This document shows, one piece after another, positions 2,333-26,080 of a stretch of 64,000 bases of DNA. Every line of letters starts with the position of its first letter. The stretch's first letter is position 1. This DNA comes from a virus. Taxonomy: Duplodnaviria; Caudoviricetes. Where the stretch lies: IMG/VR virus record IMGVR_UViG_3300042256_000025. One strand, 5' to 3'. The position numbers and the translations under genes are program-made. The notes below the pieces were generated by a model that searched no databases, was not told the DNA's origin, and saw only the letters and a list, made by a program, of their open reading frames with translations.

Positions 2333-3793
2333 TTATGGGGTTGGCAACGCATACCCTTCGATCTGACAGATCAGTCGAGCGATGTCGTTGCGCAGTGTGG
2401 TCGGTACGGTGTCCTTATCAGGCCACTCGTACAAATTGATTTCAGAGACAATGTTGTCGATCAACATAATGCCAGGGTTTCCTTGACTGCGGCCCTGTAC
2501 ATCAATGCGTTGATGAGGGTAGATCTCCTCTAGTGGTCCAATGAACCCTTTGGACAGCGGCAGGAGCGCTACCCCGCCCACTGAATAGAGGTCAACGGTT
2601 GAAGGGTCCTTTTCGATGCGGCAGCTTAACATCATGTTTGCCAAGCCCTGATATCCATGGTCACTTAACCATGCAGCAGTTACACCGATCATGCGCAGAT
2701 ACGTATCTCGGCTTTTAACTAATTGACAGGTGCGCGGATAGATCACCCGCTTACACACGAGTCCTATTAAAGGTAGATGGTAAGCGCCTATAGAGAACTC
2801 CATGTTCTGCTGAATAGCATTGATGTACCCTAACGCCTTATCTACGTTCCCCTGTGGGTTAAGCCCCGTCACAAAGGCAGGCACGTTATCCACATACGCG
2901 GTCATGGCTACCACGGCGTAATCAGGAACCGATTGACTAATGCGGTAGCGCTCCACAACGGATTCAGTTTCATCTGACTCTGATTTCGTTATACGCTTAT
3001 CGCGTACGCCATTGGAAAGGTTCTTGGCTTTAGACTCCAGAAACTTGTACGCGATCTTAATCAGCGTCTTGTCTGGATCACGGAACTCACCAATGGAGAT
3101 TCGCCGTACGATCACCATAGCCAGATAGAACCTCGGTATCTCAGACGTCCCCATATGGGTACAGATAGCCGGAGTCAACGCCTTTGAGTCTTTCTCCGCT
3201 AACGCTTCACAGTAATCCTTCAGTCGATCCATGGCTGGAAGTCTGTGAACACACGACTCTTTGAGGAGATCGTACGTCACAAGCTCCTTAAAAGCCGGAT
3301 CCAGTGGCGGGGCTACGTACATGAACTTACCCCAGATAGGGGTAACCATTTTAAAGTACATGCTCAGTACAACCAGCTCATCATACTCATCCTTGAGATA
3401 GGTCTGGCGTCTAGGGTACTCCCCCGTATAATGCTCGTGGATATCGCTATTATAAGCGATTCGGCCATACTCCAATACCCACGACCGAAGGTGCTCGTGG
3501 TTTACCAGATTCAGTAATCGCGTTACCAATGAGCGCAGCTCTATCTGCAGCAGCTCGAATGAGGTCTCCATTTCAATAAGTTCAAAGGCCTCGGCGTAGA
3601 CCCGCTGATACTCATCTTGAAGGTCCATCGGCAACGTATGCCAATATTCGTTCAGTGGACCATACACGGACTCGGTATCAGTGCCTCCGCCACTGAGTTT
3701 CATCCACAACATCGTGGTGGGCCAGATCAACTCCTGCCCACGATGGGTAGTTCTAAGAACCGTCGTACCGGTGTTCGTTATCTCTATCTCCAT
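2333..3793 (-). CDS. Non-virion RNA polymerase promoter-specificity (sigma-like) subunit, phiKZ gp68-like
   Basis: 486 aa; LNEYWHTLPMDLQDEY motif; core-block synteny; early promoter at 3833-3842. Confidence 0.6.
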   Translation of the reverse strand: MEIEITNTGTTVLRTTHRGQELIWPTTMLWMKLSGGGTDTESVYGPLNEYWHTLPMDLQDEYQRVYAEAFELIEMETSFELLQIELRSLVTRLLNLVNHEHLRSWVLEYGRIAYNSDIHEHYTGEYPRRQTYLKDEYDELVVLSMYFKMVTPIWGKFMYVAPPLDPAFKELVTYDLLKESCVHRLPAMDRLKDYCEALAEKDSKALTPAICTHMGTSEIPRFYLAMVIVRRISIGEFRDPDKTLIKIAYKFLESKAKNLSNGVRDKRITKSESDETESVVERYRISQSVPDYAVVAMTAYVDNVPAFVTGLNPQGNVDKALGYINAIQQNMEFSIGAYHLPLIGLVCKRVIYPRTCQLVKSRDTYLRMIGVTAAWLSDHGYQGLANMMLSCRIEKDPSTVDLYSVGGVALLPLSKGFIGPLEEIYPHQRIDVQGRSQGNPGIMLIDNIVSEINLYEWPDKDTVPTTLRNDIARLICQIEGYALPTP

Positions 3794-3832
3794 ACTGCAC
3801 TCCTTGACCTACAAAAGGATACTGTCTTACCG

Positions 3833-3842
3833 GTAATATAGG
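3833..3842 (-). promoter_or_regulatory. Early (virion-RNAP) promoter CCTATATTAC
   Basis: Matches the phiKZ early motif TATATTAC; about 40 nt upstream of the 3793 start; one of 8 copies, all on the minus strand. Confidence 0.8.
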
Positions 3843-3947
3843 TTTTCATTCTCTCCGATAACGCCCTATTACATTGGTGGTGTCGCTGTATATAAAAAAA
3901 TAACATAGATACATACACAGTGCGCACTGCGCACTGTGTATAGGTAT

Positions 3948-4697
3948 TTATACGTCAGCAAATACGTCCGTAGAACGACCGTTACCTTCGTAACCGGTTT
4001 TCTTATAACCGCCACCACCGTTACCGGAGGACTTGTTGTAGCCGCCGCCGTTGCCGCCACGGTTACCACCACCGTAATTGCCGCGACCGCCACCCTGGCC
4101 CCCTTCACGCTTCTTAGCGTCTTGGGCTTCTTTCTTCTCATGGGTGTCAATGAGTACCGGACCCAGCACCTCACGCATGGCATCTACATAGCCTTCAACC
4201 ACACGCCTCGAGGTAACCGCCGGATCCAGCGGATTGCCGTTTTTATCTACCAGGGCATAGAAGAAATTAGGCATCATACGGAACACACAACGCGGTGCGT
4301 TCTTACACTCCACCATGATAGAGACTACGCCTTCTGCATCCCGACCAACGTAGACCTCTGACATGACCTCAAGTTTTTCAGATTTAACGCCACCAGACCA
4401 ATCATAGTTCTTGTTTTTGATCCCTTCAACAGTGAAGTCTGGGTTGGATGCTGCCTCCAGCAACATGCGCATGAAGATGTTGCCGATAACGGGATCCATG
4501 TTCGCATTTACCGGTGGGGTGTTATCCCCATCATCCGGGTGGTTAGGGTATACCGTAATACGGATGTTCCCGTTCACCACACGCAGTTTCATGTTGGGGC
4601 GCTTGCCTTTGATGTTTGGATCCCAAAGATCACCGACCAGGGAGAGCTTAGGGTTATCGGTGAAATTCTTGGGTGGGATAAATTTATTATCAGCCAT
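3948..4697 (-). CDS. Conserved core protein with Gly/Arg/Asn-rich tail (possible single-stranded nucleic-acid binder)
   Basis: 249 aa; C-terminal GGQGGGRGNYGGGNRGGNGGGY... ending TDVFADV. Confidence 0.6.
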   Translation of the reverse strand: MADNKFIPPKNFTDNPKLSLVGDLWDPNIKGKRPNMKLRVVNGNIRITVYPNHPDDGDNTPPVNANMDPVIGNIFMRMLLEAASNPDFTVEGIKNKNYDWSGGVKSEKLEVMSEVYVGRDAEGVVSIMVECKNAPRCVFRMMPNFFYALVDKNGNPLDPAVTSRRVVEGYVDAMREVLGPVLIDTHEKKEAQDAKKREGGQGGGRGNYGGGNRGGNGGGYNKSSGNGGGGYKKTGYEGNGRSTDVFADV

Positions 4698-4708
4698 GGG
4701 GTATACTC

Positions 4709-5509
4709 CTAGGGTAGTCGGACAGCTAACATTTTTGTAAACTGCTCTTGGATATCGGAATCGGTTATGGTACGTACATCACTGCGTACCTTCTCGCGGG
4801 TCGTGGTAGGTTTCCACTTACCGGCAGCAGCACAGGCTACCAATGCCTTTTTATGGGCGTGACTACCTGCGTAAAACAGGGTTCCACGGTCACCCAGCAC
4901 TTGCATGGTTAGAAGGTTAAATGGCAAATGATAGTAGCTTTCGTTGGTGGTTAATTTACGGATCCATTCTACGGGGGGACGAATGTGTCCCGTATGACTT
5001 TCTAGCAACTGCATGTCACTAAACTGATAGCGGGACAATAAATCAATAGCATGGTGAGTGAGTACCCATCCACGCCCACGCATCTCAGGTAACGTATGTT
5101 GCAGTTGTAGCACCGGAATGCCCTGCTGGCGTTTAAGGTTATCAATCGCCAATCGTTCCAGGTTTTTATACACTAGCTGGCGCTGGGTATGGGGGGTCTT
5201 TACTTTAGCCAGTGGTAGTCGATGTTTTAGGGCATCTACCGCGGTAATGTAAAAGTGGGTAGGTACCTCTGCATTGACGAACCCATGCAGGGTCGCTAGC
5301 TCCTCTGCAAAGCCTTGTATAAACTCCCCTCGGTCCACGAGCAAGGGATCTTCAAAACTCCCATGGTAGTTTCGAAAGAGGGTATAGATATTCATCCATA
5401 CATGGTCCACTTTCTTACCCAGGTCAGCTAAGTTCTCCTCCAGCGGTATAGCCGTAGGGACACTAAAAGCGAGCGTTTCTCCCATTGCTCGGTCTTGTAC
5501 GTTAGCCAT
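4709..5509 (-). CDS. Conserved jumbo-phage hypothetical protein
   Basis: 266 aa; RBS AGGAGG; co-oriented with the SbcD-like gene. Confidence 0.7.
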   Translation of the reverse strand: MANVQDRAMGETLAFSVPTAIPLEENLADLGKKVDHVWMNIYTLFRNYHGSFEDPLLVDRGEFIQGFAEELATLHGFVNAEVPTHFYITAVDALKHRLPLAKVKTPHTQRQLVYKNLERLAIDNLKRQQGIPVLQLQHTLPEMRGRGWVLTHHAIDLLSRYQFSDMQLLESHTGHIRPPVEWIRKLTTNESYYHLPFNLLTMQVLGDRGTLFYAGSHAHKKALVACAAAGKWKPTTTREKVRSDVRTITDSDIQEQFTKMLAVRLP

Positions 5510-9769: not shown

Positions 9770-11231
9770 CCTTCTGTCCACTACAGACGCGACTCTGTAG
9801 CCGGTGTGCTTCGACACCCACCCCTGCTTTCACAGGGGAGCAGACCATATCACCTTCCTTCCACAGCGTGGTTAGGAAGCCTCCCGTATGGCAGGCGCTT
9901 GCCCGCTACTCCGCGCTACCGGATGGCCGTTGAACTCACTCCGTGTTACCCATAGGTAAGGTAGGAGCTTCGCTGCGTCGGTTGCCCAATCTCTAAGGGT
10001 TTTTACCATGCCTCTCACTTCCATTACTGGGAGAGGGATTACCCTACCTTTCGGTGGGTAAGGGGTACCTTAGAGCTATCAGGGGTTTCCCGCAGTTAGA
10101 GAGGATCCCTTAAACATCTCTGCCTAAGGGGACTTAGGATGTTTCCCTAGATAAGTGATGTGGTAGTGTTTCCATCTACCGTGGTTTTTCCATACGCTTC
10201 TTGCAACTGCCGCCTTGGTGGCGCCGACAGACGTAGCGAACTCTAAGATAGATTTGTATACCTCAGAAGTATCGGTCTTCAAGTTTATTACCCTTACAGG
10301 CAAAGGCTTCCGAACAGGGGCCGTAGGCTTTGGATTTTCCTTAGCCTCGACTTCCACAAACCCAGTAGTGTCAATACCGGCTGTGTGTAGATAAGTAAAC
10401 CAATAGCCATTTAAAATGTATTTTCTCCCCCGCTTTATGGCCTTATTGATCACCGCCCCACTGCGATTGAACGCCTCCGCACATGCGGTTAGTGTTGGGT
10501 AAATATACTTTACGTCGCCCTCATCTACCGGTATAGCCAGAACGGCTTTCGGTCGCCCACGTCTAGGGGTACCTATGTCTTCACGTGCTAAGCATGGCCA
10601 GGGCTCACCCTCAACGCGCAGACTAAAGAACTCCATAAAGGGCTCTTTTCTACCGCCCTTTAAATACCTATGGATGGCTTCGCCGTTCCGCTTAAAGTGT
10701 CGTGCTGCAGCCTGAAGGCTGTTAAAAGTAGTGACCGTACTATCACGTAGATCCATTACCTCAACCACCAAGTTATCAGTCCGCAACCCACTTTCGTAGG
10801 CGTGTCGAAGGTTACCGCTATAGCAAGTCCATTCTAAATTGCCAACAGATGAATCTGACTTGTCACCGTTGATGTGGTTTATAACAACCTCTTCCGGTTT
10901 TTTGGGCGAGGGTAGAAAGGTCTCACCCACTAGCCGGTGTATAAGGCGGGTACCATCTACTTTGTTATAGACTGCCGGATAACCAGACACAGTGGTCTGT
11001 GTCGCAGGTAAGTCAGTTAGAAGGTCATAAACCTCTCCAGCGGAATTAACAGCAAAGGTTTCACACCCAGCTGCCAAAACAAATCCATCCAAAGATTTAA
11101 TGCGCGTATGGTTGTCGGTAGGGTCAATCATCTTTATACCTCACATGTTATAGGTCCAAATGATTGTACCCATACTTTATTTTTTACCAGTAGTTACAAT
11201 CAACTTACTAGGGTTAACACTCCTAACGATT
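9770..11231 (-). mobile_element. Group I self-splicing intron with HNH homing endonuclease ORF
   Basis: 5' exon ends in U (GAT); intron ends in G. Core elements on the minus strand, about 9830-10100: P AACTGCGGGAAA, Q AACCGACGCAGC, R GTTCAACGGCCA, S GATATGGTCT. Confidence 0.88.
10124..11131 (-). CDS. Intron-encoded HNH homing endonuclease with NUMOD1-like repeats
   Basis: IHRLVGETF...INHINGDKSDSSVGNLEW; repeated FNSLQAAARHF / YPTLTACAEAF / YKSILEFA DNA-binding modules. Confidence 0.9.
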   Translation of the reverse strand: MIDPTDNHTRIKSLDGFVLAAGCETFAVNSAGEVYDLLTDLPATQTTVSGYPAVYNKVDGTRLIHRLVGETFLPSPKKPEEVVINHINGDKSDSSVGNLEWTCYSGNLRHAYESGLRTDNLVVEVMDLRDSTVTTFNSLQAAARHFKRNGEAIHRYLKGGRKEPFMEFFSLRVEGEPWPCLAREDIGTPRRGRPKAVLAIPVDEGDVKYIYPTLTACAEAFNRSGAVINKAIKRGRKYILNGYWFTYLHTAGIDTTGFVEVEAKENPKPTAPVRKPLPVRVINLKTDTSEVYKSILEFATSVGATKAAVARSVWKNHGRWKHYHITYLGKHPKSP

Positions 11232-12467
11232 ATCAGCGTTAGGAGCCTTCGTGCATAAAACTGACAACGTCGACACTCCTGAGGTCAGAGCATGTATATG
11301 CATGCACTGAATACTTCCCCTCGCAAGGGTCGGATAGCGGACCCACAGACAGCGTACGCCTTTACCCCCTGGGGCCTCTTGGAAGATCTCATAGAGTAGC
11401 TCCTCTAGCAGTGCATTGCGTGTGATGGTGTGACGATCGATGTATTCCCAGGCTTCTCGATGACTATAGCCCTTCTTGTAGAGTTTATTCAACAAGTGAA
11501 CTTTAAACATCGTAACCGCTTGAGAGTACGGGATCTTTATTTGCTCATAGTCATGTACCCCTGATTCCGAGACAATCACAGACCGGAATGCAAACGGTGT
11601 GCGTCCACCAAAGACGGTGTTACGCAGGAGACCTTCCTTTTTGGAGAAGGGGTCACCGAACATGTCGCTGTAGTAGCTAGCCAGCGAGTTAATGATGGAG
11701 GTAATCTTGCCTTCTAAGCGGCGTACGTTTGCATAGGTCTCCTCGTCGATAGACGTAATAGTGCGGGCCGCGTCTAGCGCTTCACGAATAGCGGTATCGG
11801 CATAGGTACCCGTAGCCGTGTTCTCCATGACGAATGCGATCTTATTCGGCATGGGGAGGTGTTGTGGAAAGAAGCGGTCCCGGTAGACGGTGAAAAACGT
11901 CTGCATGGACTCGCGTTCGTGTCTGGGCAATAGGGTTAAAATGGCCTCAGCGATATCATCAAAGTGGGCAATGAAATTATTCAGGCCTCTTGGGATGCCT
12001 GTTTTCATTAACCTATGTTTAATCATCGAGGCTTTCTTATTTGACTCAGGGGGATCTTCCATGAGTGGTGCACAGAACCACTGTAGTACATTAAAGCGTG
12101 ATCCAGTCATTATTGGAGATAGAATCATCCACAGCATTGGATTTACAAGGCTATAGATGCCTTGAGGGGCACGGAACCATACATTAGAGACGATCTCTTG
12201 GTCACCGGCTGCCTCTACACGGGTATTGCACTTAGGACAGAGTTGCCCTAGGTTATAGCCATAGGAGAGGTGACCACAGCTGCAGGAGGGAATCGATTCC
12301 AGTGTATCGGTGTGGTCATAAGTTGTCATGATCATAGCGTTCAATGCATCCCGCTCTTCCTTCGTTCGGGCCGGAACATCATTCAGGATGATCGGTGTGA
12401 AAGGGAGGGAGTGGAAGGCCCGATCGTGGTCATGGATAGAGAAAGCAATCATTTCATTCTCGTGCAT
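11232..12467 (-). CDS. nvRNAP beta' subunit (phiKZ gp55-like), exon 1
   Basis: Zinc finger CSCG...CPKC; KKEGLLRNTVFGGR, RSVIV and RYPTL motifs; ends APNAD at the splice site. Spliced product is 480 aa. Confidence 0.88.
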
Positions 12468-12664
12468 GGTTTTATCCCTCTATATGTAATGGAATTATGA
12501 AAAAAATAATAACTATAGATAAAGGACTACTTTACAGTAAACCCTTATCTACTACAATGTAAGGTTAGAATTTAACTTAGACGCCTACCACACAAAACAT
12601 TATGTCTATGTGGTAACTTCTCCCTACATTGGCATTCTACAGCATTAGAATGCAACAATAGACT

Positions 12665-13216
12665 TTAAACTGTAATTCTCTTAAAAGGAATTACCCAGTA
12701 ACTGCTGGTCTTGTTGGCGTAGTACCAATTCCCACCGCTGAAGTTAAGCACCCAGGCGTTGTAGGAACTGAACTCGGAAGAGGACCAGACGATCGCCGTG
12801 GGTAGACTGCCACTACTATCTAACGCATCTATCTGAGTCCTATTATTATAAATAAGCTGTAAATCGGATGCATTGGGCAGGTCATACCCTAGACTACGAC
12901 AATATTCTGCTGCAGGGCATCCAATGTTACCATACGAATCAGAGATAGAATTGTAAGTAGGACTAACCAATACACTAGTATTGTACACGGAAGAGTTTGG
13001 ATCAGTAGGGGTAGTGGGTGAGCCATTAGTACCACTTGCATTAGGCAGATTAGTATCAGTACCGTATAAACCCCAATCTTTAGTAGTACGTAGGCTAGCT
13101 GGAGCTACTACTAACCAGTCTCCATTATCCTGTCCAAAGATAATCCCTCCATACGGAAGGGTTGTACCAATCTTTATATCACTCATAGCTATACCTTCTT
13201 TTTTGCTAATGTACAT
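12665..13216 (-). CDS. Stand-alone CLec/DUF1566-type ligand-binding protein; remote DGR target C
   Basis: Homologous to the C-terminal domain of 36524-37819 (GGIIFGQDNGDWLVVAPAS, AAEYCRSLGYDLPN, VWSSSE, WVIPFKR); carries a 3' VR. Confidence 0.85.
   Translation of the reverse strand: MYISKKEGIAMSDIKIGTTLPYGGIIFGQDNGDWLVVAPASLRTTKDWGLYGTDTNLPNASGTNGSPTTPTDPNSSVYNTSVLVSPTYNSISDSYGNIGCPAAEYCRSLGYDLPNASDLQLIYNNRTQIDALDSSGSLPTAIVWSSSEFSSYNAWVLNFSGGNWYYANKTSSYWVIPFKRITV
12677..12802 (-). repeat. DGR variable repeat VR-C
   Basis: 126-nt ungapped match to the TR; by hand 19 mismatches at TR adenines and 9 at other bases. Confidence 0.8.
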
Positions 13217-13803
13217 TAGTTTTGTATATGAATTCTCTTAAATGGCACTACCCAGCAGATGCTGTGTTTGTAGCTGTAGTACCAATTCCCATTGCTGAAA
13301 TAAAGCATCCAGGCACTATAGGAATTGTACTCGGAAGAGGTCCAGACGCGCGTCGTGCCATACTCTGGCATATTCCCAAACTCAATAACCGATAGTGTGG
13401 GCCCTTCGGTGGTATCTGTAGCATCAATAGCTACCCTATTATCGTAGATTAGCTGCAAATCAGATGCATTGGGTAGGTCGTACCCTAGAGTACGACAGTA
13501 TTCTGCAGCGGGGCAGCCTACGTTGCCAAATGCATCGATAGTAGCACTATACTCATTACTAGTCAATGTACTAGTATTGTACTTACTACTATTCATATCG
13601 TTTGGTTTAGTAGGTGAGCCAACACTGCCACTCGTATTTGGAAGACTAGTATCTGTAGCGTATAATCCCCATGGCTTAATGATACGCTTACTAGCTGGAG
13701 CTACCACCAGCCAATCCCCACCATCTTCTCCGAATACAACCCCTCCGTCCTCTAATACACTACCTACCTTTAAGCCGCTCATGGCTTTAGTACCCTTTGA
13801 CAT
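13216..13803 (-). CDS. Stand-alone CLec/DUF1566-type protein; remote DGR target B (most drifted)
   Basis: Paralog of both neighbours; VWTSSE...AWMLYFSNGNW...WVVPFKR. Confidence 0.85.
   Translation of the reverse strand: MSKGTKAMSGLKVGSVLEDGGVVFGEDGGDWLVVAPASKRIIKPWGLYATDTSLPNTSGSVGSPTKPNDMNSSKYNTSTLTSNEYSATIDAFGNVGCPAAEYCRTLGYDLPNASDLQLIYDNRVAIDATDTTEGPTLSVIEFGNMPEYGTTRVWTSSEYNSYSAWMLYFSNGNWYYSYKHSICWVVPFKRIHIQN
13234..13359 (-). repeat. DGR variable repeat VR-B (degenerate)
   Basis: Colinear with the TR; many adenine-site changes plus about 16 non-A differences. Confidence 0.6.
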
Positions 13804-13809
13804 TGTACA

Positions 13810-14376
13810 TTAGTTTTGTATATGAATTCTCTTAAAAGGAATTACCCAGCGACTGCCGAGCTTGTTGGTGCAGTTCCAATACCCATAGCTGAAGAGAAGA
13901 CTCCAGGCGTTGTAGGAACTGTACTCGGAAGAGGACCAGACGCTCGACGTGGTGGAGCCAGGGGCAGTACCAGAGGAAATAGCCGATAACGTAGCTCCAC
14001 CGCTAGTGTCCAATGCATCAATCTGAGTCCTATTATTATAAATAAGCTGTAAATCAGATGCATTGGGTAGGTCGTACCCTAGACTACGACAATACTCTGC
14101 TGCAGTAGCCCCTACATTACCCTGTCCATCATTGATGGAATTGTAAGTAGGGCTAGTAAGTACATCCGTATTGTATTCTGATGAGTTAGGGTCAGTAGGG
14201 GTAGTAGTAGTCCCACTGCCACTCGTCCAGTTTGGAAGACTAGTATCAGTACCGTATAAACCCCAATCTTTAGTAGTACGTAGGCTAGCTGGAGCTACTA
14301 CAAGCCAATCTCCATTATCTTCTCCAAATACAACTCCACCATCAGGAAGAATTGTACCAATCTTTAAATCAGTCAT
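13810..14376 (-). CDS. Stand-alone CLec/DUF1566-type protein; remote DGR target A
   Basis: RBS GGAGG; paralog of the DGR target C-terminal domain. Confidence 0.85.
   Translation of the reverse strand: MTDLKIGTILPDGGVVFGEDNGDWLVVAPASLRTTKDWGLYGTDTSLPNWTSGSGTTTTPTDPNSSEYNTDVLTSPTYNSINDGQGNVGATAAEYCRSLGYDLPNASDLQLIYNNRTQIDALDTSGGATLSAISSGTAPGSTTSSVWSSSEYSSYNAWSLLFSYGYWNCTNKLGSRWVIPFKRIHIQN
13828..13953 (-). repeat. DGR variable repeat VR-A
   Basis: 126-nt ungapped match to the TR; by hand 20 adenine-site mismatches and 9 non-A mismatches at the same positions as in VR-C. Confidence 0.8.
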
Positions 14377-14438
14377 TTGTACCCTCCATATGTAATAACA
14401 GTAGTTTATTACAGTAAATTATAATTAAAGTGGCATAG

Positions 14439-14470
14439 TAATAAGGAGACCCCGAAGGGTCTCCTTATTA
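14439..14470 (-). terminator. Terminator hairpin after chmA
   Basis: TAATAAGGAGACCC-CGAA-GGGTCTCCTTATTA (TTCG loop on the minus strand). Confidence 0.8.
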
Positions 14471-14475
14471 TGGTT

Positions 14476-16431
14476 TCATCGGTTAAAGGGCTTGTTGAAT
14501 ACGGGGTTGATGTAGCTACCACGCATCTGCTCACCCATCGGGCCGGTCTGACCGTACGGAGACTGGTAGAAACCAGCTGCGTTGTAGGTACCACCGAAGT
14601 TCGGGTCGATACCCTGACGCTGCATGCCCTGATCGTAAGCGACCATGTCATCGGAGATGATACGGACGTCATTGTTGATCAGTGCCTGTACCAGACAGGG
14701 AATGAAGTTCGGTGAGAAGTACACCCGAGTGGCCATGCCGTTGATGTTACAGTCACCGGCAACGGACATCAGGCAGCGACGACGATCGGACAGGTTAATG
14801 TTGTTAGCGATACCCGGAGTCATTGCTGCGGTAGCCTGGGCTACGAACTGCAAGTCTTTCGGAGATGCTGCCAGCATGGTCAGATAATCGATAGTGCGCA
14901 GGTCACGAGCGCGACCGTCCTTATCGGTGTAGGTACCGAGGTGGACAGTAACAGTATCGTGGTGCATCACCGCAGCCTTAGCGTTACCGCTGTTAGCCTG
15001 TGCCCACACCTGGGAGAAGGCTCCGCCAGTCAGTGCATCGCATTCAGCGATGATGTCATCATTGGCGCCAGAGCGCGGGTTCTGCGCTGCAGCAATGAAT
15101 ACAGACTGTACCCACTCCAGACGACCGCCCTGCTCCACGTCCAGTGCAACAGCAACATTCTGCGTGCACCACTTATTGGCCATGCTGAACGGGGTTTCCT
15201 TACCTTCCTCCGGTACCTTGTTCAGGGAGACGGATTCAACCGGCACCTTACCCAACGCTTCCGGACCACGACCATAGGGATCGTATTCCAGACCCAGCAG
15301 ACCGATGGACTGCTTCTGTGTCTTCTGACCCGGGTAGGTTTCGAAGACACGAACCCAACCATGGTTAGCGGTCATGGCCAGCGTTGCAACCAGACCCATC
15401 AGCTGGGTGCGCAGGTCTTCAATTGAACGTCCGGAGTTAGCCAGACCGGCCACCTCGGTCAATATCACGACCGGCATGTAACCCGGCTTCGGTACCTGCG
15501 GCTGCTGCAGCTGGGCGTACGGGGACGACTGCTGCTGGGTTATGATATTGAAGTCTATGTAACCGGACACTTCGGCCAAGTTATGCTCCTGAGTACCAGT
15601 GTGTACCTGGTACATGTCACCCTGCTTCTGATTCACACGGGTCAGTTTGATGGATGTATTAAAGTCAGCTGCAATCGGCTGGCCAATACGGTTCAAACGA
15701 CACTCACCCGGAGTGATTGTAGTGCGCTGACGCACTGCAACCTGTGGGTTACGCAGGTGCTTGGCGGTTACACGACCCACGCCCTGACCACCAGCAGCAT
15801 CGATGATCGCCAGATGTGCAGAGTCAAAGTACACTCGAGTCACCTCAGCAGAGGACAGGTCCGCTGCTTTCGGTACCACACAGTGGCCGATATGAACCAC
15901 ATCAGCCGGATTCACCTTGTACTGGCTAGCCACGAAGGTGGAGACCACTTCACGCAGCTTGCTATCGAAGCAGCGGGTGGTTGGTCGATCAGTGATGATG
16001 TCCTTCTGACCCGAATAATCTCGGATTGTCTCCACGATCGGTTCCAGCTTAGAGGACATCATGCCCTCAATCAACAGGTTGTACACTACGACCTGCTTGG
16101 TGGCGCTGGAAACCGCACACAGTGCCAACACCGGCAGATACAATTGCTGACTTGAAACGGAGACCACCTCCAGTTTCAGCATGTTGCTGATCTCTGGCAG
16201 TCCTGCCAGTCGCTTCATCTCTTCACTGAAGGCTGCGAAGCCTTCAGTATCCATACCACCGGACAGGGTGGTGACACCCAGGCCATCGAAAGGATCTGTA
16301 CCGTCATACTCGTTATAACGAGTATTGTTACTATACCCCTGTTGTGGCTGGGGCTGATGTGTCTGCTGTGCAGCCTGCGGCTGTGCAGTCTGGTCCGCAG
16401 TTTTGTTCTGAGAGTTGTCATTCACACGCAT
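14476..16431 (-). CDS. chmA: Chimallin, major phage nuclear shell protein
   Basis: 651 aa; Q-rich disordered N-terminus; RLNRIGQPIAADF, VSGYIDF, HLGTYTDKDGRARDLRTIDYL and GMATRVYF segments; sits between the DNA polymerase and gp55-like genes; early promoter. Confidence 0.85.
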   Translation of the reverse strand: MRVNDNSQNKTADQTAQPQAAQQTHQPQPQQGYSNNTRYNEYDGTDPFDGLGVTTLSGGMDTEGFAAFSEEMKRLAGLPEISNMLKLEVVSVSSQQLYLPVLALCAVSSATKQVVVYNLLIEGMMSSKLEPIVETIRDYSGQKDIITDRPTTRCFDSKLREVVSTFVASQYKVNPADVVHIGHCVVPKAADLSSAEVTRVYFDSAHLAIIDAAGGQGVGRVTAKHLRNPQVAVRQRTTITPGECRLNRIGQPIAADFNTSIKLTRVNQKQGDMYQVHTGTQEHNLAEVSGYIDFNIITQQQSSPYAQLQQPQVPKPGYMPVVILTEVAGLANSGRSIEDLRTQLMGLVATLAMTANHGWVRVFETYPGQKTQKQSIGLLGLEYDPYGRGPEALGKVPVESVSLNKVPEEGKETPFSMANKWCTQNVAVALDVEQGGRLEWVQSVFIAAAQNPRSGANDDIIAECDALTGGAFSQVWAQANSGNAKAAVMHHDTVTVHLGTYTDKDGRARDLRTIDYLTMLAASPKDLQFVAQATAAMTPGIANNINLSDRRRCLMSVAGDCNINGMATRVYFSPNFIPCLVQALINNDVRIISDDMVAYDQGMQRQGIDPNFGGTYNAAGFYQSPYGQTGPMGEQMRGSYINPVFNKPFNR

Positions 16432-16508
16432 GATTTCTTCCTTTTCATGAAAGTGTAGGGATCGCGGTTAAACTATTCGAATAGCCTAACAGATGCTAGA
16501 CCACTATT

Positions 16509-16518
16509 GTAATATAGG
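16509..16518 (-). promoter_or_regulatory. Early promoter CCTATATTAC of chmA
   Basis: Motif copy about 80 nt upstream of the chmA start. Confidence 0.8.
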
Positions 16519-16782
16519 TCTTGAATCCGCTTGAATTGCCAGTTTTACACCGATTAGGTGAACTAGACGTCAGTCTGCACCCATCCAATCGGGTTAGAGG
16601 GTGAAAATTAATACATCTAGAACTCGCGCACCGCGTATTTCTGGTCGTACACCAATGCCTTGCGGCACTGGCGAGTTCTTTGTATATAATAGTGTCACTG
16701 TGATTATTTTTTACAATTCACACATTCTAATAATGATTATCGACTGGAATCCTATAGACACCCCCGTACTCATGGAGCTAAT

Positions 16783-17856
16783 ATGCACGCTATACTTAAA
16801 CCCTCGCATACTAACCGGGGGCAAATCAGTCAGTCTAAATTAAACCGCGTCTCTGGTTTAATGCGCACACAGATTACCAGGGTGCAGGACCACTACCGCA
16901 CTCGGCTAGAGGCCGCAGACGGTAACCACCCCCTCGTTCGACTCGTGTACTCCTTCTTAACCTCACCTCATCAAGAACCTATGGCAGTATATGAGTGGGC
17001 GGTTGAGAATGAGGTTGAACTGGCACAGGCGGTGGGATTCAGTAACAGTATAGAACACCGTAAGCCATTAGAGTCAGTATGTTATCCAGACTGTGATGAG
17101 TATTGGGTGACCCATCGACCTAGTCACATCCGTATGACCTTTAATGGTGCAGATGAGATCCTACTCAACACGACACCCGTTACAGTGCTATATCAGCCCT
17201 ACATTCTACCCGTTCACTATATCCCTAAGGGGGGAAAGGGCAGGAATCATTGGGCGGTTATCGGAGTCGATATCCCTGCACTGGCACTGATGTATCAAGC
17301 CTGGATGCAGTATAATGAAACCCTACCGGCTGGACAGAAGCAATCCATTGAGCAGTTCGTAGGTAGTTACGTGCTACCGGGTATGTTGGTCAGTCAGGCA
17401 AACAGTGTACGGTTGAATATGTTAACCCACTATATGGACGACACTGTACCTAAATTGGACACTCGATCCAATATCGGTATGACGGATCACACGGATGAAC
17501 TGCAATCGATACTACACGACATCATTGTCGACAGCGACAGCCGTAATTATCCGTTAGGGTATCTCTATTACCTTATTGGCGCTATCCAAGAAGGACAATC
17601 GTTACTGGATAACTTCCCCCATATAGCCGCCCCTGAGGTATTCCCACTCTATACCTGCCGGTACCTTGCCGCCATTGCATGGGTACACACTGCGGCAATG
17701 TTGGAGCTATCTCCCTCTGATGGGCGGGAATACGGACAACGCGTACGCGCCATGTCGCGTCAAGTACGGGCCCGTTTCACGCATCAGCAGTTAGGTAAGG
17801 GGTACGTGGATAAGGTAGAGAGCTGGCACAGTGACATTGTGAACCTACTGACATAA
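16783..17856 (+). CDS. Conserved jumbo-phage protein, probably virion structural
   Basis: 357 aa; HPLVRL, VIGVDIPALALMY and FVGSYVLPGML; opposite strand between chmA and the polymerase. Confidence 0.65.
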   Translation: MHAILKPSHTNRGQISQSKLNRVSGLMRTQITRVQDHYRTRLEAADGNHPLVRLVYSFLTSPHQEPMAVYEWAVENEVELAQAVGFSNSIEHRKPLESVCYPDCDEYWVTHRPSHIRMTFNGADEILLNTTPVTVLYQPYILPVHYIPKGGKGRNHWAVIGVDIPALALMYQAWMQYNETLPAGQKQSIEQFVGSYVLPGMLVSQANSVRLNMLTHYMDDTVPKLDTRSNIGMTDHTDELQSILHDIIVDSDSRNYPLGYLYYLIGAIQEGQSLLDNFPHIAAPEVFPLYTCRYLAAIAWVHTAAMLELSPSDGREYGQRVRAMSRQVRARFTHQQLGKGYVDKVESWHSDIVNLLT

Positions 17857-17861
17857 GAAAG

Positions 17862-17887
17862 ACAGGACTGGCCTTAGCCAGTCCTGT
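17862..17887. terminator. Bidirectional terminator
   Basis: ACAGGACTGGC-CTTA-GCCAGTCCTGT between convergent genes. Confidence 0.75.
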
Positions 17888-17890
17888 ACT

Positions 17891-20092
17891 TTATGCTGTG
17901 TTATAGATATTAACGTCAACCTCTTTCGAAAGTAGACGCGTTTTCTTTTTGTTTCTAAGGTAGATACCCATGGTTTCAAGTATAATCAAGAACCCGGCCA
18001 TCATCTCAGACTCAATGTGCTCGACGTTAATTACCTTCAGTATCTCCTCAGGTACCTTACCCCTTTGTAACCGCGAGCGAGGGATCAAAAAGTTACTGAA
18101 GCTGTTACGGCCCGTTGCCTTCGTGCCGCAGGTCGGACAGACGACATCCTTCTCTGACGTCTCCTCACACTGACAGCTATACGAAGCCGCTAGCCATTCG
18201 CGTAACCCCTCCTGCATCTCAGGCTCCAACGTCTCCATCCACTCTTTAAGCTTAACGGGTGAACCTAAGTCCACCGGGACCTTCACTGCCGCGTAAGGAG
18301 GGGGGTCAGCCACACCATAACGACAGGCAAAGACCTTATTCCAAAGATCATAGTGAACGTGGTTCGATTTCGATGCATTCTTATACGCCTTGGCGGCCTT
18401 TATCTGCATAGAGGCTAGATACGTGGACTCACCGGCCAGGATCGAGCGGTTAACCTCATGGGCGAGTGTAACGGGCACCCGAAGGGCCTCATACATCGTA
18501 GGGCGATTATTCGCCATAATGGAGTCCATGATCCATTTGATATAGTTACCCAGTGTATCGGTAATGATACTCGGAAGACGAGAGTTCTTAAGGTTCACGC
18601 CCTTCGAGTCAAACTCAGGTTCTGGGTAGACGTTACCCTCACAGGCACGAATGTATGAAAAGTAATGCTTCGCCATATTCGTAACGCCCAGTACCGGCTG
18701 ATAGAACTCAGACTTCATCGCCAGTCTAAAGAGCTTATCGTCTTTGACCCCTAAGTGTCTGGACAAGTGTGCCAGTACATGTTTAAGTACCTGAGAGTCA
18801 ATGTACGCCATTGCCCCCGCTACCGACATTCCTCGACGGGTAAAGTCATTTTGCCCGATGTACCAGACCACCCAGTCTTCGGTGGTAAAGATTGTGGAGT
18901 CGGTATCCGAGACCACTGCACAGTCCCTTAGGATCGTGGGTATGCTGTGTACACCATGCGGCATGTGGTCTGACTTAAGAAACGCATCGATGTAGAGCTG
19001 ATAATTAGTTAATGCCTCCTGTGTTTGTTTAATGGCCGCGCCATAGAGTTTATAACCCTCAGGGTTGTCCTTGGCCATATCGCCCACGGTTTTACCACTA
19101 AGCTCTTCGGACATCACCAAACCAATCATGGCGACCAAATCAGGATGTGCACCCTGTACATACGTATCAGGGTCCTCTACCCCCTCTAGAGGCTTCTCTA
19201 CCAACTGGCCGATGAAGGCGCGCATAAATCCTTCATTCACATCCCGCATGGCCCTAAGGTCATAGGTAAAGGCGACCACCGCCCGGTGCCAATCCTCCAT
19301 TTTATCAATAAAGACACTGACCTGTTCTATACCCTTAGGGGAGCGCCAGTAGCGACGACAGCTTTTAAAGATATGTGCCTTAAGATAGTCAGGGGTGGGG
19401 GCACTGAGTTTGTACGTGGCAAGTGCTTCCTTAACCAGTGTCTCATCAGCCAAACGAATCGAAGCGGCCATCTCAGATAAGGTAACCTCACTGCTATAAT
19501 AGTGGCGGTTCCCCATGAGCAGGCGTTCAGCTACCGCATTGGAGTAACTGGTTGCGCAGCGACAAATGGAGGTTAGGGTAGTATGTGCCGAGGCATTGTA
19601 AATCGGGTTATGTGGACTGGCGTGGGCACCCGAGATAGAGTTGTTCAGAATCTTGATGGTAGACTGCTGGTTGTTACAGAAGGTGGCCAGCTCCATGTTA
19701 CCCTCCATCTTGGCCTTTTGCCCTTCTTTCTTCACCTTAGAGCGCCGCTGAAGACCTTGATCGATAAAGTCAGGTAAGAACCCTAGTTTCTTATCAGGGT
19801 TTGAATACATGATGAGGTTAGGGCCCAGGATCCGGCCGGTGTGTTCGATCTCATTCAAGTAATTGGTTAACGGCTGCTTCTCTTTACGTCGATCTGGCGA
19901 ACCGTCTCTGCGGGCTAGGGTCTTGAGTACCGGCTCTTGAAACTGACTATTAGACTTTAACCACTCTAAAGCAACGTCCTTAGGCTTGCCCGACATGATG
20001 CTTAAATATTGCGCCATGTTTTCATGGTAGTTATTCAGTATATTAATGTCGCGCGTGTATTCTGACGGTGCGCGTACAAACGGATCTTTCAT
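17891..20092 (-). CDS. Divergent family-B DNA polymerase, polymerase subunit (phiKZ gp50-like)
   Basis: QSTIKILNNSISG (motif B), VSDTDSTIF (motif C), AKHYF and KGV motifs. Confidence 0.85.
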   Translation of the reverse strand: MKDPFVRAPSEYTRDINILNNYHENMAQYLSIMSGKPKDVALEWLKSNSQFQEPVLKTLARRDGSPDRRKEKQPLTNYLNEIEHTGRILGPNLIMYSNPDKKLGFLPDFIDQGLQRRSKVKKEGQKAKMEGNMELATFCNNQQSTIKILNNSISGAHASPHNPIYNASAHTTLTSICRCATSYSNAVAERLLMGNRHYYSSEVTLSEMAASIRLADETLVKEALATYKLSAPTPDYLKAHIFKSCRRYWRSPKGIEQVSVFIDKMEDWHRAVVAFTYDLRAMRDVNEGFMRAFIGQLVEKPLEGVEDPDTYVQGAHPDLVAMIGLVMSEELSGKTVGDMAKDNPEGYKLYGAAIKQTQEALTNYQLYIDAFLKSDHMPHGVHSIPTILRDCAVVSDTDSTIFTTEDWVVWYIGQNDFTRRGMSVAGAMAYIDSQVLKHVLAHLSRHLGVKDDKLFRLAMKSEFYQPVLGVTNMAKHYFSYIRACEGNVYPEPEFDSKGVNLKNSRLPSIITDTLGNYIKWIMDSIMANNRPTMYEALRVPVTLAHEVNRSILAGESTYLASMQIKAAKAYKNASKSNHVHYDLWNKVFACRYGVADPPPYAAVKVPVDLGSPVKLKEWMETLEPEMQEGLREWLAASYSCQCEETSEKDVVCPTCGTKATGRNSFSNFLIPRSRLQRGKVPEEILKVINVEHIESEMMAGFLIILETMGIYLRNKKKTRLLSKEVDVNIYNTA

Positions 20093-20290
20093 TAGACTTA
20101 CTCCAGACGTAAGGGTCGAGCAATCAATTCTACTACCCTATAGGGGCTACCAATCTAAATAGAAAAAAAAATAACCCCACTCCCGAAGGAGTGAGGGCGC
20201 CTAATATTAACGGCTAACCCACCGAGGTGGGACCTTTAACCAAGGGGTAAAGCATGTACATCTTCCACATGAGATAGGGATGGTGAGTAT

Positions 20291-20758
20291 TTATTCACTG
20301 ACTTCAATTCTATCGATCTTGTATCCGTTTGACAGTAGAAGGGCACGAATAGCTGTCGTATCAGGATCTCGAAAATCAGTCAGGGTAATGGTAGCTTTGG
20401 ACACTGTATTGACATACAGGGCGGATTCAATGATCCAAGCCTCTCCGACATACAGAATAGCGCCGTCGTTTGCCTTAATCATAAGGTAATTATAGGCGGT
20501 CCAGTCATCCGGATAAATAGCTTTAACGTTATCCGGCAAATGTCGATAGATATTGGCGTGATGAGTAGCTGCATCGGCGGATGGGGGGACTCCGTCACTG
20601 TTTAGACGGGCCAGTATCTTGCCTTCAATCTCAACACGACCCGACATAGTGCTGTACAGTGACATATGTACGTTGTCGTTAAGGGTGAGTTGGTGTATTG
20701 TGACGGCGTTTAACATGTTGTAATCTCCGTGTTCGCGCGGCGTAGGTACCGAGCGCAT
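20291..20758 (-). CDS. Conserved hypothetical protein
   Basis: HANIYRHLP and VGEAWI segments; directly upstream of the polymerase. Confidence 0.65.
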   Translation of the reverse strand: MRSVPTPREHGDYNMLNAVTIHQLTLNDNVHMSLYSTMSGRVEIEGKILARLNSDGVPPSADAATHHANIYRHLPDNVKAIYPDDWTAYNYLMIKANDGAILYVGEAWIIESALYVNTVSKATITLTDFRDPDTTAIRALLLSNGYKIDRIEVSE

Positions 20759-21023
20759 CGATGAACTTTAAAGTAGATAGATCAAGTTCAGCTTGATTCC
20801 ACTGATCAATGATCTCAATTAGGGGCTCTTGAAGGGAAAGTGGAAGAGCCTCTAGGGGCTCTAAATCACCATCATCCAAAGCTAGGACAATGTCCGTCAG
20901 TCGCTCTAACCCCTGTGCGATGATAAGGGGTGTGATGGGGATGTCAGGTGAGTCCTCTATTATCCACATCATAATGAGGGGCAGTATCTCGACCCGACGG
21001 TCTATTATAATTGTAGCCATCAT
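20679..21023 (-). CDS. Hypothetical protein
   Basis: 114 aa; part of an overlapping gene chain. Confidence 0.55.
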   Translation of the reverse strand: MMATIIIDRRVEILPLIMMWIIEDSPDIPITPLIIAQGLERLTDIVLALDDGDLEPLEALPLSLQEPLIEIIDQWNQAELDLSTLKFIDALGTYAARTRRLQHVKRRHNTPTHP

Positions 21024-21435
21024 CCGTCCTTATTAACAGACTATTGCCACCCAAGAGCTCTACCTGTAAAATAGGGGTCAGGTATATGGGGTGGTGTGGC
21101 GGTATCAGCTTGAGCTGCTCATATAACTCCGAGCAGAGTGTATGCAGGCAGTAGTATATCATCTCCTCCAAGTCACTGCGCCAGCCTTTATCGAGAAATG
21201 ACATTATATCATCGACATACGTATCCGATAAAATGGTGTCTACGACATCACCCACAATATCCTCATCCCACCCATGACTAATCGCCGCGGCTAAGTGCTC
21301 AACTGCACCGGGGAGGGGTTTAAATAAGTAATGGTACCAGCGATGGATGGTCGCGGGGTTAATACTTACCTCAGCTTGTAGTGGATATAGAAGATGATAG
21401 AGATGGGGTATGGATATAATTACAATTGTGCCCAT
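20944..21435 (-). CDS. Hypothetical protein
   Basis: 163 aa; RBS GGAGG. Confidence 0.6.
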   Translation of the reverse strand: MGTIVIISIPHLYHLLYPLQAEVSINPATIHRWYHYLFKPLPGAVEHLAAAISHGWDEDIVGDVVDTILSDTYVDDIMSFLDKGWRSDLEEMIYYCLHTLCSELYEQLKLIPPHHPIYLTPILQVELLGGNSLLIRTDDGYNYNRPSGRDTAPHYDVDNRGLT

Positions 21436-21449
21436 GGTAGCGCCCTCCG

Positions 21450-21878
21450 CTAAATGAATGACACGATGACAGTATTAGGCCCGATAATGGTTGCACGGGT
21501 AACGGGTTTACCTAAATACGGCATAATTAACGCCTCTTGCGGGTACTCAAACCCGGCAATTAGCTCCATTAACCATTCCTGTATAACGTCATAGTCTAAC
21601 ATAAAAAGGGCCTCACGAATAACCCTGCCCTGGTCTGACTCTAAAAGATGGGTGGCGAGTATATCAGTTGACTGCAGTCCGTTTGGACGCCATCGACCGA
21701 TAACGTCTACTGATAAAAGGTGGTTATAAAGGATAGGTAATATACCCCCCACTACCGGATGGTAGTGGGGGTCTATGGTGTTTTCCTCTATACCGTAATG
21801 CGTGAGTATCAGGCTATGGTAGCCTCTCATTGGACCCTCCTGCCCAATACGGGTTATCAACTGTAAGGTTTGGCACAA
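21450..21878 (-). CDS. Hypothetical protein
   Basis: Likely start MRGYH after GGAGG. Confidence 0.6.
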   Translation of the reverse strand: MCQTLQLITRIGQEGPMRGYHSLILTHYGIEENTIDPHYHPVVGGILPILYNHLLSVDVIGRWRPNGLQSTDILATHLLESDQGRVIREALFMLDYDVIQEWLMELIAGFEYPQEALIMPYLGKPVTRATIIGPNTVIVSFI

Positions 21879-22257
21879 TGTTAATAGCTACTGTAGATGG
21901 CGGCACTAACGAGACACTTTGTTCCTCATGTATATAAATCGACATAGGGACTGGTACGATGCTGTTTTTAACCGCCTCCAGTATCTCGTAGGCCACCGAC
22001 TCCCATTGGTAGGCACGGGTACAAACGTCACAGTCATGACACCCGCACTCTAGCGTCGGCATGTGACCCATCCAATCGCTGTCCAGTACGTACGTAACCA
22101 CATCGTCCATCCGTGCATCCGGATCCTGCTCAGCCAAATAAAAGAGCGCATACAGGTCTTCGGCCAATGCCATGAAGTCGGTACCCGCCTGCAAGACTTG
22201 TGGCGGTATGGGCTGGCGATGTATTATTAGTCGTGCCATATTCATGCGTGCCCCCAA
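21814..22257 (-). CDS. Hypothetical protein with CxCxxCxxC cluster
   Basis: ECGCHDCDVC. Confidence 0.6.
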   Translation of the reverse strand: MGARMNMARLIIHRQPIPPQVLQAGTDFMALAEDLYALFYLAEQDPDARMDDVVTYVLDSDWMGHMPTLECGCHDCDVCTRAYQWESVAYEILEAVKNSIVPVPMSIYIHEEQSVSLVPPSTVAINIVPNLTVDNPYWAGGSNERLP

Positions 22258-22649
22258 CCGGTATTATGGGTAGGTACAATAGGCTGTCGAATAGGGGGGT
22301 CTGGCCACCATTTAATGACACCTGTCCCCTGCGATAGCCACTCGACCACATAAGTATGGTTCCACTGAGGAGCACCTACGGTGGACTGCAACAATGCATC
22401 TACCGCATCATAGAGTCGCTTCTCTATATAGCTTCGGTAATCTGTTGGTACGGACAGTGTGATCATTACATCCGTAAGGGGATCATTACAATGGGTACGG
22501 AACATAGAACCGTAAAGCTGACAATCCACCTCATGACGTACGATGTCACAGGTATCGACCACCGAAGCAGCTGTATCGAACTGAATAAGCCAATCTGACA
22601 AAGCCTTAGCTGTAGGCACTACACCTATTATTCCGCACCCTTCACTCAT
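22242..22649 (-). CDS. Hypothetical protein
   Basis: TAATG coupling to the upstream gene. Confidence 0.6.
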   Translation of the reverse strand: MSEGCGIIGVVPTAKALSDWLIQFDTAASVVDTCDIVRHEVDCQLYGSMFRTHCNDPLTDVMITLSVPTDYRSYIEKRLYDAVDALLQSTVGAPQWNHTYVVEWLSQGTGVIKWWPDPPIRQPIVPTHNTGWGHA

Positions 22650-23305
22650 TACTCACCTCGCATTCGATGCCAGTCCTGTATGCGATAGTCCCCATCGTAA
22701 ATTAATACGTGGAGCTTGCCCGCTAGATGCAGGCTCCACACGTCGTATGGATTCTCACTACGCACACGGTGTAAGGCACCGTTCAAATGGTAGATTGGCT
22801 CAATGTCGTCAAAGAAACACAGGATTTCTTCTATCTGACGGACAATGTCCTCTTCTGATTCGGAAGGTTTGTTAAAGTTAATATCCTCACCCGACAACTG
22901 TCGAACCAGTTCTGCCATTTGAACAGGGCTGACCTTCGCTTTCGAGAGCACCTGTTGTAAACCAAAGCTGGGACCATTTTGAATATAGTCCTCTATGGCC
23001 GCCAGGAGAATGGCGTCCTCCATTACATTGCGGTAGGTGCCGGTCTCCACATAGCTCTTCGCCAATGCCCCCCGTACCTTAGCCACCACATGGTCACGGG
23101 TGTATTCTGGTACGGTCCACCCCATCACTCGGGCGAGCGGTGCCTCGATGACATCACGTACATGGGCAACGACGAGGTTATAGCAGAAGACTTTATCGTA
23201 GTTAAGGTTCGGGATGAGACCCGCTTTAGCGCCCCCCACAAAATAGCTGTGTAACAGGGCGCCATAGCGGTTAAGGTCTAAAATAACACGTTTGTTCTCA
23301 GACAT
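22649..23305 (-). CDS. Conserved hypothetical protein
   Basis: 218 aa; C-terminal GDYRIQDW. Confidence 0.65.
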   Translation of the reverse strand: MSENKRVILDLNRYGALLHSYFVGGAKAGLIPNLNYDKVFCYNLVVAHVRDVIEAPLARVMGWTVPEYTRDHVVAKVRGALAKSYVETGTYRNVMEDAILLAAIEDYIQNGPSFGLQQVLSKAKVSPVQMAELVRQLSGEDINFNKPSESEEDIVRQIEEILCFFDDIEPIYHLNGALHRVRSENPYDVWSLHLAGKLHVLIYDGDYRIQDWHRMRGE

Positions 23306-23327
23306 ACGTCTATCCTTGATACGTCAC

Positions 23328-23741
23328 TCATCGTCGAATGATTGCAGTGGGTGAATGGGCTAGGATCAATGCAACGTCGCCTGGTCCTAGGATCTCAACA
23401 TCAAATCCTAGACTAGCCGCGGCCTCGCCGAACTCAGGAGTAGGCGAGAGTGCACGATAGAGGTCGCTGGAGTATTCCTCCAAAGCACGGTTAATGGATA
23501 CTTCCATCTCCAGACAAGGTGGGCGATAGCGGGTCGGTAAGTAGGTAAGCAAGAACATGTCTTCTAATCTACGCCCCAGCCAGTACCGGTAGAGGTCCAT
23601 AACACTATTACCTCGATCATCCTGAGGCTCTACCATCGTAAAGTCTCTAACCTGCAAACAGGCATGGATGATTTCCCGTATGTCCCGATCTACACTGCGA
23701 TCAAAATGATGAATAATCGTAGTAAAGGGAAGCTTACTCAC
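23328..23741 (-). CDS. Hypothetical protein
   Basis: GTG start with RBS AAGGAG. Confidence 0.6.
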   Translation of the reverse strand: MSKLPFTTIIHHFDRSVDRDIREIIHACLQVRDFTMVEPQDDRGNSVMDLYRYWLGRRLEDMFLLTYLPTRYRPPCLEMEVSINRALEEYSSDLYRALSPTPEFGEAAASLGFDVEILGPGDVALILAHSPTAIIRR

Positions 23742-23789
23742 ACCAAGCTCCTTCGTTAAAGAGGGGGAGAGACTCCCCCTGCACCCTAT

Positions 23790-24851: not shown

Positions 24852-24910
24852 GTGTTTTCCTCTTGGTTAATGGTTACAGGGCTCCGCCCTTATACGATAA
24901 GGGTAGGCCC

Positions 24911-25201: not shown

Positions 25202-25266
25202 AGTCTCTTCCTTCTGTCTACATTGAATAGGTGGTTATTGCGTAGATTAATTCTACTGGCTTAAGG

Positions 25267-25276
25267 GTAATATAGG
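25267..25276 (-). promoter_or_regulatory. Early promoter CCTATATTAC (phuZ operon)
   Basis: Motif copy. Confidence 0.8.
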
Positions 25277-25339
25277 TTTTCCTTAGAAACCATTGACCTG
25301 AGTCGATCCTATGACACGTGACAATATTAAGGGACCCTT

Positions 25340-26077: not shown

Positions 26078-26080
26078 GGA

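Follow-up and report, generated by a model that had tools for sequence, protein, structure and literature searches.

Why do three genes carrying the variable repeats (VRs) of a diversity-generating retroelement (DGR) disagree with the only template repeat (TR) in sight at bases other than adenine, and which template wrote them? The question is raised by a 64,000-nt stretch of DNA (IMG/VR record IMGVR_UViG_3300042256_000025, referred to in full length as the window) from an uncultured jumbo phage that encodes a chimallin and has a genome of about 199.5 kb. At 12.7–14.4 kb the window holds three tandem small genes, A, B and C, each of which ends in a copy of a 125-nt repeat, and at 34.4–37.8 kb it carries one complete, active DGR comprising a target with VR1, an Avd gene, the TR and a reverse transcriptase (RT). 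Genes A–C are genuine DGR targets, the VRs of which were last written by a template allele different from the resident TR. Template turnover is the probable explanation: the array would have been written by a cassette allele with another template (TR') and then separated from it, leaving the remote VRs dormant. The features on which the argument rests are listed below.

12470–14439, no strand assigned: strain-specific insertion with the three-gene VR array, between the chimallin gene (14476–16431) and an RNA polymerase (RNAP) β-type gene (11223–12467)
12665–13216, minus strand: remote target gene A, 183 amino acids (aa), with VR-A at 12677–12801
12739–12749: diagnostic patch of VR-A, the 3' flank differences of which lie at 12681–12691
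13216–13803, minus strand: remote target gene B, 195 aa, with VR-B at 13234–13358
13810–14376, minus strand: remote target gene C, 188 aa, with VR-C at 13828–13952 and its diagnostic patch at 13890–13900
34467–35600, minus strand: DGR RT, 377 aa (PF00078, E 1.7e-18; phrog_1423, E 9.9e-92)
35609–35733, minus strand: TR, haplotype H1 (A50, C79, G82, T88, G89)
35893–36348, minus strand: Avd-type accessory gene, between target and TR (JGI call of 134 aa, 35893–36297)
36514–36537, minus strand: 10-bp hairpin directly after VR1 (DNA fold −11.7 kcal/mol, z −4.7)
36524–37819, minus strand: cassette-adjacent main target, 431 aa, with VR1 at 36536–36660

Each of genes A–C encodes a C-type-lectin-fold (CLec) domain with the VR at its C-terminus. 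Their matches to Lcl_C, from E 1.9e-5 for gene A to 5.5e-4, are all below the cut-off; the AlphaFold2 model of gene A (pLDDT 89.4) has as its top match in the PDB the C-terminal domain of Legionella Lcl (8q4e_A; probability 1.00, E 2.2e-3), and C-type lectins rank next.

The minus-strand TR (35609–35733) was aligned without gaps with each VR, and positions are given here as TR index. None of VR-A, VR-B and VR-C matches the resident TR at all non-adenine positions (9, 15 and 9 differences, respectively). A first-pass annotation of the window had stated that VR-A and VR-C depart from the TR at the same nine non-adenine positions, and the alignment bears this out: they are index 79, 82, 88, 89, 137, 139, 145, 146 and 147 (window positions 35681, 35678, 35672, 35671, 35623, 35621 and 35615–35613), which come in addition to 18 adenine-site differences in VR-A and 20 in VR-C. 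The changes that it had listed (CTG>CTT, TTT>TTC, GGC>AGC, GTG>ATT, TTC>TTT, CGG>AAG and the third base of the codon after GCC TGG) were recovered exactly, and VR-A and VR-C indeed differ from one another only at TR-adenine sites and at one further base, index 79 (G versus T). Over index 37–136 the two agree at 63 of 64 non-adenine sites and at only 20 of 36 adenine sites, and their genes are 78.7% identical upstream of the VR; the nine shared positions thus bear the signature of a template, and are not the product of ordinary divergence of paralogues. Conversion of one of the two genes by the other was considered and ruled out, since it would also have homogenised the adenine sites. VR-B shares the differences at 79, 82, 88, 89 and 145–147, lacks those at 137 and 139 (it keeps GTG at 137–139) and adds eight private non-adenine changes (44, 67, 70, 85, 118, 126, 127 and 142), so that from its sequence it looks like a decaying VR.

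Four of the shared differences (79, 82, 88 and 89) lie in the middle of the VR with mutated adenine sites on both sides, and the changes of this patch, CTG>CTT and TTT GGC>TTC AGC, include two synonymous ones. The T82/C88/A89 patch is not confined to VR-A and VR-C: it is present again in VR-B, in VR-E (sibling assembly L013, 11 kb at the end of the 198,546-bp record JGI 3300042257), in a copy of VR-A on a 30.7-kb contig of JGI 3300042268 (L014) and in L025, a contig from the same sample as L013. As the resident TR cannot have written the remote VRs in full, a template with T82/C88/A89 must have existed, which upholds one half of the earlier proposal that a TR' lies elsewhere or was displaced; the other half, TR' itself, was found neither in the window nor in the public collections and cassettes searched. 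It is very unlikely that the patch at 79–89 was produced with no other template, whether the resident TR converted the VRs only in patches or in part, or the RT mutated them in a non-canonical (non-adenine) manner. In favour of this reading, there is no diagnostic position between index 90 and 136, so that the resident TR could have rewritten the 3' half of VR-A and VR-C, and a survey of DGRs recorded differences other than A-to-N in 23% (PMC5758913). Random errors do not account, however, for three substitutions, two of which are synonymous, that recur in six VRs in three genomic contexts; VR-A and its L014 copy differ only 5' of the patch, the opposite of what 3'-anchored partial homing predicts; and from VR-D, a further VR of L013, it is clear that where the resident TR does home, this stretch is overwritten.

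VR-D also helps to separate what the template contributed from what belongs to the target. Up to index 144 it shows no non-adenine difference from the resident TR, but it has TAA at 145–147; its gene shares its protein end with P0005 of the window phage. VR-E, like VR-B, carries the patch together with GTG at 137–139, and L025 combines the patch with a TR-like 3' end. Because the five 3'-terminal differences (137, 139 and 145–147) sort independently of the patch in VR-D, in VR-B and VR-E and in L025, it is the target that they follow and not the template, and by analogy they look like target-side flank, a zone resembling the initiation of mutagenic homing (IMH) element past the end of complementary DNA (cDNA) transfer. 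In Bordetella phage BPP-1, the transfer of cDNA information ends in the corresponding 3' zone. The template-derived differences are, to judge by the sequences compared, 82 (G>T), 88 (T>C) and 89 (G>A), and index 79 probably differs in TR' as well. At the adenine sites 50 and 56, T is found in all six patch-bearing VRs and is therefore probably the base of TR' at both (A>T). The TR' sequence proposed in the first-pass annotation is therefore to be amended at one end: its middle is probably right, and its 3' end, GTA ATT CCT TTT AAG AGA, is probably wrong, since the five positions that it incorporates do not follow the patch.

The resident cassette (34467–37819) is in active use on its own target. 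Its RT is ~44% identical to annotated reverse transcriptases of cultured Burkholderia, Shewanella and Pseudomonas phages, and its Avd gene matches phrog_3206 ('Avd protein of DGR', E 1.1e-7) as well as PF22296 (bAvd; E 7e-4), the latter with 20.4 bits and below the curated cut-off of 40. Of the 125 nt of the TR, 42 are adenines, and an (AAC)4 run is included; the TR sequence is the same (100% identity) in L016 and L026–L029, and a single substitution distinguishes it from the TR of L012, a 93%-identical cassette of the relative ERZ1673962, of which the remote VRs are in L011 and the assembly coverage is only ~4x. All 15 differences between VR1 and the TR inside the repeat fall at TR adenines, and so do all 14 in L016, which together with L017 and L020 represents a 95,238-bp sibling strain (JGI 3300042272). 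Between the window and L016, VR1 differs at 13 adenine sites, whereas the rest of the target gene shows no mismatch in 1159 positions; the 2069-nt Avd–TR–RT stretch is likewise identical apart from a single indel column at 36330, outside the RT gene. VR1 is thus rewritten faster than point mutations accumulate, and its diversification is ongoing. The main target was found in three protein variants that differ only within residues 395–418, and the cassette-adjacent VRs of the window, L016 and L012 each match their own TR. VR1 of L012 (L012:1–124, plus strand) is longer by one codon, which faces the (AAC)4 run of the L012 TR; in-frame indels at AAC repeats have also been reported for other DGRs.

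No current hypervariability was detected in VR-A, VR-B or VR-C. For VR-A the comparison is with the L014 copy, where the 3' half of gene A, its VR and 300 nt downstream, including the first ~120 nt of the RNAP β-type gene, are found at 10001–10850 among unrelated neighbours (Band_7, DHFR and SprT-like); in these surroundings, the copy is a footprint of recombination between different large phages. The two VRs differ at three of 125 positions (index 57, 60 and 69 only, all of them 5' of the patch) and share 33 of 36 adenine-site states. This divergence is about equal to that of the adjoining 3' gene half and downstream flank (~2.5%), and VR-A has therefore not been rewritten in either lineage over that time. 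Private non-adenine changes are present in VR-E as well as in VR-B, in line with what a target would accumulate once it had ceased to be refreshed. Contig counts, on the other hand, were dropped as evidence of dormancy: VR-A, VR-B and VR-C are each represented by one sequence on three or four contigs, but these contigs may be one strain, and the same strain also shows a single VR1 sequence on four contigs.

The separation of the array from its template can be related to the mosaic structure of these genomes, which becomes evident on comparison with the sibling strain.

24546–24547, no strand: mosaic breakpoint, window versus L020

The window and L020 are 99.96% identical over 24547–29107 and 90.4% identical over 14440–24545. 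The high-identity block shared with the sibling strain spans 24547–41390 (99.5–99.96%) and includes the DGR cassette; L020 has no array, and an unrelated ~280-bp stretch without a TR-like match lies there between the chimallin and RNAP genes. The drop in identity at the breakpoint and the absence of the array from the sibling place cassette and array in blocks of different ancestry. Displacement of TR' by a cassette swap, which the first-pass annotation had named as an alternative to a TR' elsewhere, fits this mosaic structure. As regards the location of TR' and the direction of exchange, we infer the following course of events. A TR' cassette allele, in related co-occurring phages now or formerly, would have written the VRs of the array; recombination between mosaic genomes, by replacement of the cassette or by import of the array, would then have joined the array and the present cassette; and the remote VRs would remain as dormant imprints. 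In a less likely variant of the second step, in-place drift of the TR would have parted the array from its template.

Such drift can also be envisaged as an explanation by itself, and two sets of observations bear on it. The sequences fall into three graded haplotypes, H3 (VR-A, VR-B, VR-C, VR-E and L025), H2 (L010, L011a and L011b, differing only at 88/89) and H1 (the TR), which look like a series. In addition, the targets differ in the hairpin that follows the VR. The hairpin directly after VR1 was equalled in stability by none of 200 shuffles, and L025 has one at the same post-VR place with a different sequence (L025:1270–1307, plus strand; z −6.0). A strong hairpin directly downstream of the VR was found in none of the remote targets A, B and C: VR-A is followed by a moderate one ~25 nt downstream (z −2.1), and downstream of VR-B and VR-C no fold was better than shuffles; VR-D and VR-E likewise have no hairpin. 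It might be supposed that, with no need for recombination, the resident TR once read TR' and that VR1, VR-D and other often-homed targets were updated, while the remote targets, which without a strong post-VR hairpin may be homed rarely, kept the old state. This is improbable, however, because the H1 TR is common to cassettes that are 7% diverged (L012), so that the change would be old, yet VR-A, VR-C and L011b show no non-adenine decay; moreover, array and cassette lie in blocks of clearly different ancestry, for which recombination is the simpler account.

TR' itself was sought at several levels. According to the first-pass annotation, an AAC-rich match near a second RT would support its existence; no such match was obtained in the window, in three public collections or in cassettes with an identical Avd. 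The 64-kb window contains only the five known repeat copies. Exact and degenerate TR/TR' patterns, applied to viral_contigs, genome_contigs and metagenome_contigs, none of which includes the record of the window itself, returned no TR' and only the relatives L004 and L010–L012. Next to an identical Avd, TR' was absent from four of four sampled cassettes from other samples, all of which have the resident TR. In L013, which is the terminal 11 kb of the sibling record, VR-D, VR-E and a paralogue, X, were found, and no TR'. Among the best 120 RT relatives there was no second RT from the contig of the window phage. Paralogue X (134 aa; L013:978–1382, plus strand), near the contig end of JGI 3300042257, is adenine-rich, and its VR-equivalent keeps almost all template adenines (AAC TTC AGC AAT GGG AAT TGG CAC AAC AAC AAC AAG); it was ruled out as TR' by its 20 non-adenine differences from the TR, and may, as far as its sequence indicates, be a VR that was reset and then decayed, or an old TR-like copy inside a coding gene.

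L025 was the only sequence returned by a search for a main target reading F-S with IPFKR. It encodes a 376-aa target, the N-terminus of which is 80% identical to that of the window main target, and it shares the downstream intergenic motif of cassette-adjacent main targets as well as their strong post-VR hairpin. Since every cassette-adjacent VR seen matches its own TR, L025 probably adjoins a TR' allele.

Several findings weigh against template turnover, and some of them would favour a second TR', with or without an RT of its own, which would be located elsewhere in the same genome and would still service the TTC AGC remote VRs in trans. The search within this genome covered the 64-kb window, and about 135 kb beyond it (roughly 1–96 and 160–199.5 kb), which makes up two thirds of the genome, could hold TR'. 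VR-A and VR-C are free of non-adenine decay, which is mildly unexpected for old relics, and the states at index 79 (G/G/T/G/G/C) are poorly explained by any single TR' base. A 356-aa target of the window phage reads F-S in its protein sequence where otherwise identical proteins of sibling strains read F-G, and an AGC-type template was thus used not long ago. In ERZ1673962 the TR is of the resident type (L012), yet both remote VRs (L011) read TTC AGC, and this recurrence of the same kind of TR/VR mismatch could point to a conserved second template. With respect to L025, the contig ends 57 nt past the gene, before the TR, so that the existence of a cassette with TR' is something that we infer, and L025 is itself chimeric, with a C-terminal domain like that of genes A and C and a 3' flank like that of L012. 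That at least four VRs of the genome or the sibling assembly (A, B, C and E) share the patch would also be in keeping with a second TR'.

A second TR' is nevertheless judged unlikely. VR-A was not rewritten during the ~2.5% divergence of its flanks, VR-B and VR-E have accumulated private non-adenine decay, neither a TR' in the window nor, in the best 120 RT matches, a second RT from this contig was detected, and in ERZ1673962 the degenerate pattern found one TR only, in an assembly of ~4x coverage. A particular form of this explanation, in which an RT-less second TR elsewhere in the genome is serviced in trans by the single RT and Avd, and about a dozen targets fall into two or three template classes, is doubtful; if true, it would constitute a multi-template DGR in a nucleus-forming phage. 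Template turnover is favoured over an active second TR because the genome is mosaic and VR-A is dormant.

Other targets were noted in the course of these comparisons. The 356-aa target and a 328-aa target lie outside the window (proteins P0167 and P0171, the clusters of which have seven members each across samples); about half of the members differ from the copy of the window phage only within the last 45 residues, and on this pattern both targets look actively diversified. At the site where the 356-aa copy of the window phage has F-S, F-G is the reading of most other members. In L011 of ERZ1673962, a 440-aa open reading frame (ORF; 3507–4829, plus strand) contains two tandem CLec domains, each ending in a VR (3731–3855 and 4136–4260); these VRs are internal to the protein, as a further C-terminal domain follows. 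At the orthologous place, IMG/VR contig 3300042280_000081 (L004:2085–2492, minus strand) has one VR fused in frame to the ORF downstream, while in the window the place is taken by an unrelated 257-aa ORF (42027–42800).

The genes on either side of the array are the following.

11223–12467: RNAP β-type gene (split)
14476–16431: chimallin-type nuclear-shell gene (PF25677, E 3e-18)

The chimallin of the window is only ~24% identical to those of cultured phages, and a divergent family-B DNA polymerase and split RNAP genes are also encoded. The split RNAP β-type gene is adjoined by an HNH/NUMOD1 homing-endonuclease ORF (10124–11131, minus strand). Megablast of the cassette and of the three-gene array against 50,697 phage records gave no match among cultured phages. 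In a comparison of 224 jumbo phages published in 2021, no FGS (C-type-lectin-fold) domains such as error-prone RTs diversify were reported (PMC7824862). The setting is thus unusual, in that the many stand-alone CLec genes that accompany the DGR in this chimallin-encoding jumbo phage are scattered across more than 100 kb.

Since a VR retains the non-adenine bases of its last template, mismatched VRs can be used to date and trace the turnover of templates and the exchange of modules among co-circulating phages. Here, this template-imprint logic separates an active target (VR1) from the dormant VR-A, VR-B and VR-C. It also implies a caveat for automated target counts, since not every VR-like repeat near a DGR undergoes diversification.

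The resident cassette has much in common with the mtd-avd-TR-brt system of Bordetella phage BPP-1: the order of a target with a C-terminal CLec-fold VR, Avd, TR and RT is the same, the differences of VR1 are restricted to adenines and a hairpin directly follows the VR. In contrast, BPP-1 is a temperate phage of ~42 kb with one target, whereas the present one is a chimallin-encoding jumbo phage with about a dozen targets distributed over more than 100 kb; its target domain is of the Lcl_C/DUF1566 type and not Mtd; and at its main target no IMH/IMH* mismatch is seen, since VR1 stays identical to the TR as far as the repeat extends at that end.

Non-adjacent targets, mismatches other than A-to-N, unmatched VRs and non-diversifying targets have all been described previously (PMC5758913; PMC10907252). 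In the survey of Wu et al. (2018), non-adjacent targets were used in trans, mismatch patterns varied among the targets of one DGR and up to 11 non-adenine differences were recorded in one target; phage-DGR targets more than 100 kb away were not expected, and the mismatches, attributed to RT infidelity or to independent mutation, were left unexplained (PMC5758913). The remote targets described here resemble those of the survey in being non-adjacent and in having mismatches that differ by target, and depart from them in that the mismatches are shared, partly synonymous and common across genomes, which points to a different template allele. In the bacterium Thiohalocapsa PB-PSB1, Doré et al. (2024) found VRs the non-adenine sites of which match a TR elsewhere, VRs without a perfect TR match and one non-diversifying target, and offered structural variation and duplicated or diverged cassettes as explanations (PMC10907252). 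VRs with no perfect match to a TR in the sequence searched, and non-diversifying targets, are common to both systems. That case, however, concerns the chromosome of a bacterium, in which transposons have shaped several RT-bearing loci, whereas in the present one, a jumbo phage of the lytic type, only one cassette is visible and the mosaicism arises through homologous recombination between strains. What is added, and is modestly novel, is a well resolved case in which shared and partly synonymous mismatches identify a different template allele and are tied to the mosaicism of the genome.

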